A stretch of 26,654 nucleotides of DNA. It comes from an uncultured Candidatus Saccharibacteria bacterium (lineage in GTDB: Bacteria; Patescibacteriota; Saccharimonadia; Saccharimonadales; AWTP1-31). Below are positions 1,449 through 5,656 of this stretch, one piece after another. Where the stretch lies: assembly GCA_964469435.1 (NCBI GenBank), contig CAYXYR010000002.1, forward strand, positions 1-26,654, in the 5' to 3' direction. Both the position numbers and the translations under genes were made by a program. The notes below the pieces were generated by a model, which was not told the origin of the DNA, ran no database searches, and saw only the letters and a list, made by a program, of their open reading frames with translations. The stretch's first letter is position 1, and each line of letters opens with the position of its first letter.

Positions 1449-1477
1449 TTGCCAAAACACAAAAACTATGCTAACGT
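1449..1477 (+). promoter_or_regulatory. Sigma70-type promoter of the zeta-like kinase operon
   Basis: TTGCCA (1449-1454), 17 nt, TAACGT (1472-1477), with extended-10 TG at 1469-1470. Confidence 0.65.
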
Positions 1478-1491
1478 ATAACTAAGTTATA
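1477..1491. promoter_or_regulatory. Perfect inverted repeat TATAACT-A-AGTTATA over the predicted transcription start (operator candidate)
   Basis: 7-bp arms are exact reverse complements around a 1-nt centre; directly follows the -10. Confidence 0.45.
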
Positions 1492-1493
1492 AA

Positions 1494-1511
1494 CAAAAAC
1501 AAAAACAAAAA
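1494..1511 (+). repeat. Tandem repeat (CAAAAA)x3 immediately before the start codon
   Basis: Read directly: caaaaa caaaaa caaaaa ATG (1512). Confidence 0.85.
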
Positions 1512-3101
1512 ATGCCAGAAACATTAACGCCACCACAGCAAGAACATAAGGTTGTATCGGTACCTCCTGACGCAGAGCTAAGTCAGTGGACAGAACATAG
1601 GGTCGCCGATGGCCAGGTGAGCGAGTTAGCCCAACTAGACACAAGCCTTAAACCGCCAGAAGATTCATTGCCTGCCGAAAACCAAGAAGCTAGGGGTCAA
1701 GCAGAACAGCTAGTTCCTGATGGATTTAAATCAGTTGCAGAGCAGCTATACGAAGAAACGGACCTTGCCAAAAGAAAAGAGCTCAAGGCCCAAGCAGCGT
1801 TGGAATTAAAGCCTACGCTAGACTCGCTCGACGATGAATCGGTTGAAGATTACCTGGTTGAGGTTAACGAAACTTTTGGCGGTGTATTCTCAGGCGAGGA
1901 TTTGTTACTGCTTAGTAATTCACGAGAAAAAGTCGTCATTGTTAACGACAAAGGACGCCTTGAAGAGATAGAAGTATCGGAAGAAAACATTGGTGATGTT
2001 TTGATGGCTGTCAAAGCAGCCGACGCCGAAAAACGTTTGGGCAACAGTTATGGACTAAGGCACGAGATTCTCAAAAGAAGTAAAGGTAAGGTTAGTACGA
2101 CAGATGCTTATACTTATGCGACGGAACTTCCATTAAACGATGCTGACATGAAGGATTACTTAGATGATCCCGACAGCTGGATACCAGAAATAGCTGAGTG
2201 GCACGAGAGAGTTGTCGATGAAGAATACGCCAAAGCTCAAGCATTGTCGGAGAGGCTAGACGACGAAGAGCCAACTGTATATGCGCTGCGAGGTAATACA
2301 GCTGCCGGTAAGACTACAGCAGTTAGGCGTAATGCAACTTTTGCTAAATCGCTCGACGAAAAAGGCGAACCGTCGGGCAGTATAAATCCCGATACTCAAA
2401 AAACTGATATCAAGAATCGCGAAGCCGAAGAAGGCCGTCAGACCATAAGTCATGGGCAAGCCCACGAAGAGGGATCTATGTTGGCTCGTAAAATCCAAGC
2501 TCGAATAGCGGATTCTGAATCTTCCATGGTTATTGATAAGCGTATGTCTACGATTAAAAACCTTAATGAACTAATAAAGTTGGCTGAAGCACACGATAAA
2601 GAAATAAAAATCCTCGATGTAGATGTGCCGCTCGAAATATCTCTTGTTAGAGTTCTTCAGCGACCAGTTGGTGGTGATTCACCGAATGTTCAGTTCGACG
2701 CTGTTGCTGGAGGGTTCATTGACATACGGCATAGTAGAGGTGAGGTACTAGAGCGTGCCGAATCAGACGAGAACATAACCGACTATGTGTTAACTGTAGC
2801 TGATTCTAATGGGGAGTCCGTCGAAGTTGCTCACAAGGTAGACGGCGAGATCGTAATTGACCCAGAGCGCGAGGAGTTGTTTGAACAGGCGACAGGCGGT
2901 AGGGCAGACGCCGAAGCAACGGCTAAACAACTTGCTGAGACAGTCATAACCGATGAATATATTGAAGAGTATATAAAGAGAGTGCATGGAAATGATCCCG
3001 AGGGTCGGCAAGCCCAATCAGCTCATGCTTCTCTGGTTCAGTACAAGGGCAAAACATTTAAACAAGCTTTAGATGAAAGAGCATCATCATTAACTGAATA
3101 A
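1512..3101 (+). CDS. Zeta-toxin-like P-loop nucleotide kinase with long acidic N-terminal extension (529 aa)
   Basis: VYALRGNTAAGKTT Walker A (2292-2318), followed by INPD, AHEEGS, SMVID and VDVPLEISLVRVLQRPVGG, the motif order of the zeta/PezT kinase fold. The first ~250 aa are D/E-rich with no recognised domain. Confidence 0.72.
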   Translation: MPETLTPPQQEHKVVSVPPDAELSQWTEHRVADGQVSELAQLDTSLKPPEDSLPAENQEARGQAEQLVPDGFKSVAEQLYEETDLAKRKELKAQAALELKPTLDSLDDESVEDYLVEVNETFGGVFSGEDLLLLSNSREKVVIVNDKGRLEEIEVSEENIGDVLMAVKAADAEKRLGNSYGLRHEILKRSKGKVSTTDAYTYATELPLNDADMKDYLDDPDSWIPEIAEWHERVVDEEYAKAQALSERLDDEEPTVYALRGNTAAGKTTAVRRNATFAKSLDEKGEPSGSINPDTQKTDIKNREAEEGRQTISHGQAHEEGSMLARKIQARIADSESSMVIDKRMSTIKNLNELIKLAEAHDKEIKILDVDVPLEISLVRVLQRPVGGDSPNVQFDAVAGGFIDIRHSRGEVLERAESDENITDYVLTVADSNGESVEVAHKVDGEIVIDPEREELFEQATGGRADAEATAKQLAETVITDEYIEEYIKRVHGNDPEGRQAQSAHASLVQYKGKTFKQALDERASSLTE

Positions 3102-3116
3102 TAAAGGAGTGATATA

Positions 3117-3511: not shown

Positions 3512-3540
3512 TTGATTTATAATGTTAATTATGCTATTGT
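3512..3540 (+). promoter_or_regulatory. Sigma70-type promoter of the Fic-HD-HD operon
   Basis: TTGATT (3512-3517), 17 nt, TATTGT (3535-3540), with extended-10 TG at 3532-3533. Confidence 0.6.
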
Positions 3541-3573
3541 TTAGTTATTAAATAAAATCAAAAACTCAAATAA

Positions 3574-4470
3574 ATGGAAACACCACAACCCGACCCATCA
3601 GCTACAGATCAAGTTATCCAGGGTATTGACCCTGTTGTTGGTGCAGATGTTATTACTGTAGCCCAACCTGGCGAATCCCAGCAGGAATTAGAAGGATCGC
3701 CTGACGACGACGTTAGCCAACAAGCAGTAAACGAGGCTGTAGTGCCCGTTGATGAAGCTGTAGACGCTGCCCCAACAACCGCTTCAATAATTGACGCAGA
3801 AATCTCGCCGGAAGAAGTGCAAAAACAAGACTATGTAGAAAAAGCTTTGGCTAACCTACGAGCAACAAGCCGTACTGCTACGGGTGTTATCGATACTAGT
3901 GCGAGCTCAACAAAAGCCGATGCCATGGTTGAGGGTCTAGATAGTGCTAGTATAGCCGAAACTGCGGTAACAAATTTTGCGAGTACTATTGCCGAACTAT
4001 ATGACATGAAAGATGTTAGCTTTGAATCCCCGGCGGACGTTAGAAGTTTTTTGGAGTCAGTAGCCAAACAAATTAATGGAGGCTTGTTAAAGGAGGGTCA
4101 ACTTATACGATCTGGTGCTGACTCTGACAAATACCCCTATACGCGCATTGCGGACTTGGATGCAGCGCTGGATGATTTCTCTACTGAATTATTTGCAAGA
4201 TTACAAAACCCAGATGACGACCCGATTGCAACGGCTGCCTGGGTGGAGTATCGGGTAGATCTAACGGATCACTTTTTTGCGGATGGCTGTGGTAAGACAG
4301 CCAAGGCATTAAGTGCTTTTGTTTTAATGCGCAGCGGCCAAGAGCTGCCAACATATCGTGATCGCAAAGAACTTTATTCTCACGCACCCAAGACAATACG
4401 AGGCGCCGATCCTGTTATAAATGCAGCAGAAGAGCAAGCTTGGCTAGATTACTATAAGACGTTATTCTAA
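3574..4470 (+). CDS. Fic/Doc-fold protein with non-canonical active-site motif and acidic N-terminal extension (298 aa)
   Basis: ATAAWVEYRVDLTD-HFFADGCGKTAK-ALSAFVLMRSG aligns with the Fic HPFxDGNGRxxR loop and flanking helices (motif at 4270-4305). Upstream GQLIRSG...KYPY resembles the Fic flap region. Confidence 0.75.
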   Translation: METPQPDPSATDQVIQGIDPVVGADVITVAQPGESQQELEGSPDDDVSQQAVNEAVVPVDEAVDAAPTTASIIDAEISPEEVQKQDYVEKALANLRATSRTATGVIDTSASSTKADAMVEGLDSASIAETAVTNFASTIAELYDMKDVSFESPADVRSFLESVAKQINGGLLKEGQLIRSGADSDKYPYTRIADLDAALDDFSTELFARLQNPDDDPIATAAWVEYRVDLTDHFFADGCGKTAKALSAFVLMRSGQELPTYRDRKELYSHAPKTIRGADPVINAAEEQAWLDYYKTLF

Positions 4471-4476
4471 TCCTAT

Positions 4477-5076
4477 ATGACTTCTCGAGACCAAATGCTT
4501 CAACTAGTTAAGGAACGCCATCTAAATCAGTTTAGAAACGGCGTACTAAAGGTCCCGTACTGGATGCACTGTTATGGCGTTGCTAACATGCTCGAGAATA
4601 TGACCATGCAATATGATGTGGGTATTAATAAATCCGAGAGGGAGGTGCTGTACTTAGCTGCACTAGGCCATGATCTTTACGAAGACACAATCACGCAGCG
4701 AGAAGAAATTTGCAGTAAGTTTGGCAAAGAAGTCGATTCACTAATTTTTGAGCTAACCAATGAGGTGAATGATTTAGATCGTGAAGCCTACATGAGCAAG
4801 CTTAGCCAAGCCACAGATCGCGCATTACTTATTAAACTGGCAGACATGCTAGAAAACACCACTAGTGTTTATTATTTTGCCGATTACTTAGGTGCAAAAT
4901 GGATTAGTAAGTTCTTTTTACCAATCATGAATGATACATTGCCAGCTGTTACTGATCACAAATTCCATGCTAAGTGGTCACATTTGGCGGATGCTCTGAA
5001 TAAGATAGTTGCATCGAATATCGGTTTGATTGAATCTCGTTTGTCAACGTTAGATACTAAGCCCAAGGATGATTAA
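4477..5076 (+). CDS. HD-domain hydrolase, RelA/SpoT-hydrolase (Mesh1/SAH)-like, copy 1
   Basis: H-LNQ-FR...PYWMH, AALGHDLYEDT, FGKEV, LLIKLADMLEN: the motif series of the stand-alone (p)ppGpp-hydrolase-type HD domain. Confidence 0.8.
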   Translation: MTSRDQMLQLVKERHLNQFRNGVLKVPYWMHCYGVANMLENMTMQYDVGINKSEREVLYLAALGHDLYEDTITQREEICSKFGKEVDSLIFELTNEVNDLDREAYMSKLSQATDRALLIKLADMLENTTSVYYFADYLGAKWISKFFLPIMNDTLPAVTDHKFHAKWSHLADALNKIVASNIGLIESRLSTLDTKPKDD

Positions 5077-5656
5077 TTATACCAACCGACTAGATAGTGC
5101 TCTCAGGATTGCAGCCCGTGTCCACGAAAAGCAAGGCCAACATCGTAAGGGTACGGATATTCCTTACATCATTCATCCGTTCGGTGTCATGGCAATTGCC
5201 AGCAACGTCACCGACGATGAAGACACGCTAATCGCGTGCCTATTGCACGATGTCCTGGAAGACGTGGATCCTGTTATTTATAATACGGAACAAATGGCTC
5301 GTGATTTTGGAAACGAGGTTGTTTCGATAGTAAAGGATGTTACTTACGATGCTGAAATCAGCAACTGGCAAGCTAAATGCAAGGCATATCTGGAACATCT
5401 GGATAATGTGGCAAGCGAGAAAGCAGTTATTGTCAGTATTGCCGACAAAATACATAACCTCATATCAACACTTTCTGATTATGAGCGACAAGGCGATTTG
5501 CTATGGCAAATATTCACCACAAAAAGTGCTAGCGACCAACTATGGTGGTACAAAGAAATATTAACAGTAACTACAAAACGTAAGGCACCCGTTCAACTAA
5601 CAAGACAGCTTTCTGAGTTAGTAAAAAAAATGGATGCATCGATAAAAAACCCTTAA
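5069..5656 (+). CDS. HD-domain hydrolase, RelA/SpoT-hydrolase (Mesh1/SAH)-like, copy 2
   Basis: HEKQGQHRKGTDIPYIIHP, ACLLHDVLED, FGNEV, SIADKIHN. Overlaps copy 1 by 8 nt (translational coupling). Confidence 0.85.
   Translation: MINYTNRLDSALRIAARVHEKQGQHRKGTDIPYIIHPFGVMAIASNVTDDEDTLIACLLHDVLEDVDPVIYNTEQMARDFGNEVVSIVKDVTYDAEISNWQAKCKAYLEHLDNVASEKAVIVSIADKIHNLISTLSDYERQGDLLWQIFTTKSASDQLWWYKEILTVTTKRKAPVQLTRQLSELVKKMDASIKNP

Follow-up and report, generated by a model that had tools for sequence, protein, structure and literature searches.

Among the toxins that have been studied in plant pathogens is AvrRxo1, an effector of Xanthomonas oryzae pv. oryzicola. This enzyme makes 3'-NADP and inhibits the growth of bacteria, yeast and plants, and its residues T167 and D193 are needed for both toxicity and NAD 3'-kinase activity (PMC5491322). 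It is paired with a small inhibitor, Arc1, and structures of the pair are available (PDB 4Z8Q-4Z8V). AvrRxo1 homologues from Saccharimonas and Parcubacteria, which carry C-terminal Fic/Doc domains and are accompanied by an arc1-like open reading frame (ORF), were reported by Triplett et al. 2016 (PMC4938570); hydrolases are not mentioned in that work. Here we describe a block of five genes from an uncultured Candidatus Saccharibacteria bacterium, found in a window of 26,654 nucleotides (nt), by which we mean the whole stretch of DNA that was analysed. The window is contig C2 of a genome of 842 kb, with a completeness of 99.85%. Judged from its sequence, the block is probably an accessory toxin-antidote cassette, in which two writers are countered by a protein inhibitor and two enzymatic erasers.

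Several other described systems share parts of this arrangement. SpoT/Mesh1-type hydrolases cleave (pyro)phosphate groups from the ribose of ppGpp and ppApp, and they also remove the 2'-phosphate of NADPH. Fic enzymes are known as modifiers of proteins. The epsilon/zeta and PezAT pairs (PDB 1GVN and 2P5T) consist of a toxin with the same kinase superfold as the window kinase and a small protein inhibitor. However, their substrate is UDP-GlcNAc and not NAD, epsilon and PezA are unrelated to Arc1, and these kinases are far more distant from ours than AvrRxo1 is. In the toxSAS/SAH pairs, e.g. FaRel, a small alarmone hydrolase (SAH) neutralizes a toxic alarmone synthetase by degrading its product (PMC7229694). 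A nucleotide-modifying toxin that is countered by a stand-alone HD protein degrading its product is also what we propose for the window, but here the writers are a zeta-type kinase and a Fic-fold enzyme, and an Arc1 protein inhibitor is present as well.

The five ORFs lie on the same strand between folP and a membrane-protein gene, and together they cover positions 1512-5656. Their identities, as assigned by the comparisons described below, are:

1512-3101, forward strand: gene 1, zeta-type kinase of the AvrRxo1/XopAJ family, 529 amino acids (aa)
3117-3485, forward strand: gene 2, small acidic protein of the Arc1 family, 122 aa
3574-4470, forward strand: gene 3 (P0003), variant Fic-fold protein, 298 aa
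4477-5076, forward strand: gene 4 (HD1), SpoT/Mesh1-type HD_4 protein of clade I, 199 aa
5069-5656, forward strand: gene 5 (HD2), small alarmone hydrolase of clade II, 195 aa

The stop codon of the Fic-like gene is separated from the start of HD1 by 6 nt, and HD1 and HD2 overlap by 8 nt. The kinase and Arc1-family genes form unit 1 of the block. This unit has much in common with AvrRxo1:Arc1, namely a full-length homologous kinase core that keeps the Walker A threonine and the catalytic aspartate, an acidic Arc1-family ORF directly after the kinase, and a GC content below that of the surroundings. It differs in its company, a separate Fic-like gene and two SAH-type hydrolases.

Pfam matches the kinase to Zeta_toxin/AAA_33 only, and an earlier note on this DNA had called it zeta-like. 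The kinase fold stands, but the description falls short: the NCBIfam model NF041405 (XopAJ/AvrRxo1) matches residues 196-522 with an E-value of 3e-81, over profile positions 1-322 of 324 and with a score just under the curated cut-off. The AvrRxo1-ORF1 structure (PDB 4z8v) matches at E 3e-43. An AlphaFold2 model of the kinase, with a predicted local distance difference test (pLDDT) score of 86.6, fits 4z8u_A with an E-value of 2e-22, a template modelling (TM) score of 0.87 and a root-mean-square deviation of 2.3 Å, whereas zeta and PezT reach a TM score of only about 0.5 against the same model. The Walker A residues G266-K267-T268, together with N292-P293-D294, which includes the catalytic aspartate D294, align with the GKT and NPD of 4z8v. 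The equivalents of AvrRxo1 T167 and D193 are thus conserved, and across 30 homologues K267 and D294 never vary and T268 hardly does. By profile and predicted structure gene 1 is an AvrRxo1/XopAJ-family kinase, and not merely a zeta-like one. In place of the type III signal of AvrRxo1 it carries a 200-residue N-terminal extension, made up of a disordered, acidic stretch (residues 1-64, with 13 D+E against 4 K+R over residues 1-65) and an extra domain (70-200) that the crystallized AvrRxo1 lacks; the kinase core follows at 196-522. By homology to the Xanthomonas enzyme, the kinase would use ATP to phosphorylate the 3'-hydroxyl of the adenosine ribose of NAD or nicotinic acid adenine dinucleotide (NAAD), giving 3'-NADP in the case of NAD. 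Such kinases are rare. They were found in 3 of 61 relatives and in 3 of 401 genomes sampled from the phylum.

The ORF that follows the kinase is small and acidic, as first described, with an isoelectric point of 4.46, and it has its own AGGAG Shine–Dalgarno site. As a single sequence it finds no match in Pfam or the PDB, and a profile was needed to place it. A similar ORF of 100-120 aa follows every kinase homologue that we examined. In a ten-member alignment of these ORFs K59, E60, F62, D78, Y96 and Y97 are invariant, and the resulting profile matches AvrRxo1-ORF2 (4z8q_B) with an E-value of 2e-11. The Arc1 motif has been defined as KExFD(x25-27)(Y/L)ExxYY (Triplett et al. 2016, PMC4938570). 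Gene 2 has K59-E-P-F-D63, 28 residues, and then M92-E-A-K-Y-Y97, i.e. the spacer is one residue longer and a methionine stands in place of Y/L. The suggestion that this protein might be an epsilon-like inhibitor is therefore rejected by the profile match; on this evidence gene 2 is a member of the Arc1 (AvrRxo1-ORF2) family, and Arc1 proteins are the inhibitors known for such kinases. Because of the signature and the profile match, we assign unit 1 to the AvrRxo1:Arc1 modules, a known type of toxin-antitoxin or effector-chaperone pair, and not to the epsilon/zeta pairs. From the AvrRxo1:Arc1 structure it is expected that the small protein would bind and block the kinase.

Gene 3 is less easily recognized. 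It has no match in Pfam (including PF02661), NCBIfam or PADLOC, and the rest of the genome has no match to PF02661 either. Its relatives give sub-threshold or borderline matches to PF02661 only, and none of the 60 homologues of the protein is annotated. The fold is clear, as the earlier note had predicted in calling it a variant Fic protein: an AlphaFold2 model reaches a pLDDT of 95.3, all 50 of the PDB matches listed for it are Fic proteins, and so are 97 of the 100 matches listed from the ESM Atlas. A family profile matches FICD at E 4e-7 and aligns the motif with HPFIDGNGRTSR of FICD. Residues 1-85 form an acidic, disordered leader (19 D+E against 1 K+R) and residues 86-298 the Fic-like domain, whose conserved N-terminal TSRTAxG, considered as a possible inhibitory helix without the glutamate, lies outside the profile alignment to FICD. 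The motif itself is H233-FFADGCGKTAK-244, encoded at 4270-4305. Compared with the canonical HxFx(D/E)GNGRxxR, the family motif HFFADGCGKTAK (HFFADGCGKxAK) has an asparagine changed to cysteine and both arginines changed to lysine, and HFFADGCGK is invariant or nearly so across the family. By motif and model we are confident that gene 3 is a Fic fold that retains the catalytic histidine. It shares the fold, the His-Phe-x-Asp-Gly core and the use as a toxin domain with the Fic/Doc toxins (FICD, IbpA Fic2, VbhT/VbhA, Doc/Phd and Tox-DOC). Unlike these, its partner is an HD hydrolase, and not an inhibitory-helix antitoxin or an Imm13, Imm23 or SUKH protein. In the proposed cassette this variant, with its Asn to Cys and two Arg to Lys changes and the histidine kept, would be a second toxic transferase.

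Where the Fic-like domain occurs elsewhere argues for such a use. A search of 1.84 billion representatives returned 242 clusters at E<=1e-30, and many of these are found inside proteins of 1,000-6,100 aa, often at the very C-terminus. All four of the giants that we tested have Zeta_toxin directly before the Fic-like domain; a WXG100-like domain stands at the N-terminus of one, and a MuF-portal domain is present in another. Since the kinase and Fic-like domains occur together in all four, and two of the four have such trafficking domains, we regard the kinase-Fic didomain as a warhead of the polymorphic-toxin type. In the one locus examined for this, the gene after a 2,607-aa kinase-Fic giant encodes an HD-Arc1 fusion. 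The window protein is 51-52% identical to the C-termini of two kinase fusions (P0088 and P0092). Elsewhere the module is fused as a kinase-Fic warhead with immunity genes behind it, and on the reading that we prefer the window has it in completely split form. At the C-termini of giants the didomain is found with trafficking domains of the LXG/WXG100 (type VII) and MuF toxins, but the window proteins are short, separate and have no recognized trafficking domain. The polymorphic-toxin survey of Zhang 2012 includes no zeta toxin and no HD immunity protein. Phage carriage was considered and set aside, with just one viral contig carrying the Fic-like domain.

These giants also bear on a different explanation, in which the block is a non-toxic signalling or cofactor pathway and a modified NAD or adenine nucleotide is made and removed for the cell's own regulation. 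Two writers with two erasers do resemble the logic of bifunctional RelA/SpoT, and an HD-Fic fusion (P0048) resembles a synthetase-hydrolase enzyme. However, we consider this very unlikely: AvrRxo1 is a growth inhibitor in three kinds of organism (PMC5491322) and Arc1 is its inhibitor, the didomain ends WXG100 and MuF giants with immunity-like genes next to them, and the distribution is sporadic and accessory. Our preference is still for the toxin-antidote cassette.

Some members of the Fic-like family have unusual surroundings. A 662-aa protein from genome G051 (locus L029, 7838-9826) ends in the Fic-like domain and is followed by a clade I HD gene; its residues 366-436 resemble Cas_csx3, which is of the ring-nuclease type (E 4.6e-5, 23.6 bits against a cut-off of 21). 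In locus L038 (5001-6742) a Fic-like gene is convergent with a canonical zeta toxin of 293 aa (E 1.6e-38) and no HD gene is present; the sigma-70 and FGE-sulfatase neighbours there look foreign to the candidate phyla radiation (CPR). Two soil metagenome contigs (L106 and L107) have the reverse fusion, with the Fic-like domain N-terminal of the kinase, and neither HD nor Arc1 was detected on them.

The last two genes of the block had been read as RelA/SpoT-type HD hydrolases, and this is confirmed. HD1 matches Pfam HD_4/HD and HD2 matches HD_4 at E 1e-18, both above the Pfam cut-offs. Each is a single HD_4 domain of about 190 aa with no synthetase domain. The catalytic set H, HD, ED, D...N, which is present across both clades of these proteins, is complete in HD1 (H31, H65-D66, E69-D70, D123, N127) and in HD2 (H36, H60-D61, E64-D65, D126, N130). 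The best PDB matches of HD1 are Mesh1 and bacterial SAHs, and that of HD2 is RelH of Corynebacterium glutamicum (7qoc, E 4e-40). C. glutamicum is an actinobacterium; the known hosts of cultivated Saccharibacteria are also actinobacteria (PMC10633639). A third HD_4-like ORF occurs in the same genome (locus L043, G000:C32:5536-5745), in a frame of 157 aa that covers profile positions 1-66 only, and it may be truncated or divergent.

Although the two HD genes are adjacent, they are not the simple pair that the earlier note had taken them for, since they belong to different clades with different partners. A maximum-likelihood tree of 23 HD proteins has two clades, each with 99/97 support. All 11 members of clade I, including HD1, are found beside a Fic-like domain. 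The HDs beside kinase-only modules fall in clade II, together with HD2, four HDs that stand alone, and an HD-Fic fusion on a long branch, whose place is unsure. Across the surveyed loci the HDs beside Fic-like genes are all of clade I, bar one fused HD of unsure clade (L040). HD1-type proteins were found in 2 of 61 relatives, adjoining a Fic-like gene both times. HD2 is 52-60% identical to the stand-alone HDs and 32-39% to those beside kinase-only modules.

The linkage of the hydrolases to the two writers extends well beyond this genome. Of the CPR kinase loci whose context was usable, 15 (the window, G024, G026, G390, L030-L034, L037, L044, L045, L049, L050 and L056) have an HD gene no more than two genes away and four (L035 and L046-L048) have none, although such counts overstate independence because the loci share ancestry. 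Six gene orders were seen, i.e. convergent, divergent, kinase-HD-Arc1, kinase/Fic fusion-HD-Arc1, HD-Fic opposite kinase-Arc1, and that of the window itself. There are also fusions of kinase with Fic, of HD with Fic (P0048), and of HD with Arc1 (L056, L070 and L073). A further 45 loci with the HFFADGCG pattern were collected from metagenomes and viral contigs. In 21 of these the HD gene is directly beside the Fic-like gene. The clade I model is the best match for 21 of 21, and in nine of them the locus fetched has no kinase. The closest relatives with a kinase and a separate Fic gene (L030, L031 and L044) have a clade I HD only, so the extra clade II gene, HD2, is particular to the window. The earlier note had read the block as a toxin-plus-immunity module in which the HD proteins are functionally tied to the two writers. 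Both points are supported by comparative genomics, as many genomes have the combination, in no fewer than six orders and in fused forms.

This pattern is hard to reconcile with the idea that the HDs are ordinary housekeeping hydrolases of alarmones or NADPH, which happen to lie beside an AvrRxo1:Arc1 module and an unrelated Fic gene. The adjacency has outlasted rearrangement into six gene orders and is also seen in fusions of three kinds, every clade I gene that we saw accompanies a Fic-like domain (in the relatives, too, HD1-type proteins occur only there), and both HD genes are inside an indel that is described below. Moreover, we found no RelA/SpoT synthetase domain in the 99.85% complete genome, and for this reason no housekeeping role is evident for HD1 or HD2. 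On the other side, the closest relatives of HD2 are solitary genes in unrelated contexts, some orphan SAHs have metabolic roles, one bacterial SAH being known to dephosphorylate NADPH (PMC9765508), and many AvrRxo1:Arc1 modules have no HD gene. Of all the explanations that we weighed, incidental housekeeping neighbours are the least probable.

A more serious alternative is that the Fic-like enzyme modifies a protein, e.g. by AMPylation or Doc-like phosphorylation, and that the clade I HD supports or regulates the toxin and does not reverse its mark. The HD might then remove an inhibitory nucleotide, supply or destroy the donor, or dephosphorylate the toxin. The fold and the retained catalytic histidine match those of the protein-modifying FICD and IbpA, and the Tox-DOC domains are described as AMP/UMPylators of proteins, with non-enzymatic immunity proteins (PMC3482391). 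What makes us think this unlikely is, first, that the clade-specific coupling and the HD-Fic and HD-Arc1 fusions put the HD in the position of an immunity protein, and second, that the substrates known for HDs of the RelA/SpoT homologue (RSH) type are ribose (pyro)phosphate esters, in nucleotides and at tRNA ends, and not protein adducts. In addition, the motif changes N to C, R to K and R to K occur jointly, which argues for a changed substrate.

Under the toxin-antidote cassette that we prefer, HD1 of clade I would erase the product of the Fic-like enzyme. HD2 of clade II may erase the kinase product, e.g. by turning 3'-NADP back into NAD, or may serve as a general back-up. The toxins may act within the producing cell, in addiction or defence, or may be delivered to a host or a competitor. 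A nucleotide-directed Fic activity is hinted at because the sole consistent partner of the Fic-like domain is an alarmone-type hydrolase, and speculatively the target of this variant might be a ribose hydroxyl, in a nucleotide or at the end of a tRNA. Taken to its full extent, the proposal is that HFFADGCGKxAK Fic proteins write a phosphate-containing group not on protein but on a ribose hydroxyl, which would belong to an adenine nucleotide, to NAD or to the 3' end of a tRNA, with clade I SAHs as dedicated erasers, and that clade II SAHs are the natural 3'-NADP phosphatases for AvrRxo1-type kinases. We offer this joint version tentatively, as a possibility that is clearly less probable than the cassette reading itself. 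If true, it would add a new kind of reaction to those of the Fic fold, and enzymatic immunity of a new class against polymorphic toxins.

Besides the shared ancestry of the loci, several observations weigh against the cassette and its proposed mechanism. The partnership is not obligatory: six loci with kinase-Fic and Arc1 (L078, L093 and L097-L100) have no HD, nor do the CPR loci L046-L048 with kinase and Arc1, and an HD gene was found by hidden Markov model (HMM) in none of about nine non-CPR kinase loci, from Myxococcus, Corallococcus, Noviherbaspirillum, Methylibium, Paracidovorax and a gammaproteobacterium. The nearest relatives of HD2 stand alone, in housekeeping contexts and in genomes in which no kinase was found, therefore its tie to the kinase is weaker than that of HD1 to the Fic-like gene. 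The kinase scores 273 bits against NF041405, under the curated cut-off of 300. No secretion signal was found for the block proteins, and around the block there is no convincing integrase, mobile-element gene or terminal direct or inverted repeat. We know of no precedent for a Fic-made nucleotide product that can be erased by an SAH. The chemistry that we suggest for all five proteins is a prediction from sequence and from related enzymes.

One of the kinase loci has a setting that touches on transfer. In L037 (5001-10750) an operon of Fic-like, HD and kinase genes is within about 700 nt of PrgI-, TraC- and VirB4/TraG-like genes. Genes of this sort belong to a type IV apparatus for secretion or conjugation, and their nearness might point to delivery, or else to carriage by a conjugative element.

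How much of this is new? The earlier note knew of no described system with this combination, which was overstated, as AvrRxo1:Arc1 and the fusion with Fic were published in 2016. The Parcubacteria contig of Triplett et al. is among our loci (L050), and the Fic/Doc C-termini that they reported are the same domain as gene 3. The HD partner is apparently undescribed: we found no report in the literature searched of AvrRxo1 or the Fic variant joined with SAH/HD hydrolases. In the AvrRxo1 papers that we read we found no enzyme that removes 3'-NADP, and a hydrolase that travels with this kinase family is a direct candidate for that activity. The Fic-like domain defines a large unannotated family of hundreds of clusters, often at the tips of giants that resemble secreted toxins. 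Since each domain is a separate small gene in the window, it is a convenient natural dissection for tests of toxicity and rescue. The cassette also bears on how genome-reduced episymbionts are armed and protect themselves.

A same-genus genome, G001, provides a view of the site without the block. In G001 folP and the membrane-protein gene directly adjoin, and none of the five genes (kinase, Arc1, Fic-like, HD1 and HD2) is present in that genome. By blastn, positions 1341-1404 of its contig C41 correspond to window 1313-1376 and positions 1436-2996 to window 5655-7234, a clean indel. The remaining features of the region are:

566-1417, reverse strand: folP, left flank of the block
1377-5654, no strand: the accessory block, a 4.3-kb indel that is missing between folP and the P0006 homologue in G001
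1449-1511, forward strand: A-rich leader before the kinase, with a promoter-like site (TTGCCA and TAACGT, separated by 17 nt that end in TGC), putative function
3496-3514, forward strand: weak hairpin that resembles a terminator, separating the two units; such sites are no more numerous than in shuffles
3512-3573, forward strand: A-rich leader before the Fic-like gene, with a promoter-like site (TTGATT and TATTGT, separated by 17 nt that end in TGC)
5714-6307: membrane-protein gene (P0006), right flank of the block, with an AGGAG site

The block has a GC content of 43.1%, compared with 46.7% for the remaining window, and the closest homologues that are named come from Candidatus Saccharibacteria. 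That HD2 was a resident gene, beside which a cassette was inserted, is unsupported because the indel relative to G001 takes in HD2; co-deletion in G001 is possible. A known defence system was rejected, as PADLOC models gave no meaningful match for any of the five proteins. The G001 homologue of the membrane protein (C41, 2414-2981) is matched as two pieces in different frames, which suggests a frameshift or an assembly error in G001.

The two units begin in a similar way, as the earlier note had claimed of their promoters and leaders, and this was borne out modestly. Common to both leaders are TTGnnn, a 17-nt spacer ending in TGC, a weak -10 and an A-rich stretch that lacks a Shine–Dalgarno site. 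The local alignment of one leader to the other scores 29, against 16.9 +/- 2.9 for shuffles (1 of 500 shuffles reached 29), and this exceeds the scores against 12 other upstream regions. A scan for generic consensus promoters and terminators gave counts that are not above those of shuffles. In both leaders (window 1467-1511 and 3530-3573) a T(A/G)TGCTAAT box is followed by AAAACAAAAAC, which leads straight into the ATG. The same pattern of TGCTAAT...AAAACAAAAAC-ATG, again with no Shine–Dalgarno site, precedes the kinase or Fic genes of L029, L030, L031 and L044, whereas the Arc1-family gene and the downstream membrane-protein gene have AGGAG sites instead. From its recurrence, the box with its leader could be a shared regulatory or translation signal. 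The proteins of the kinase, Arc1-family and Fic-like genes also have a common M-(P)-E-T start (window 1512-1550, 3117-3130 and 3574-3610).

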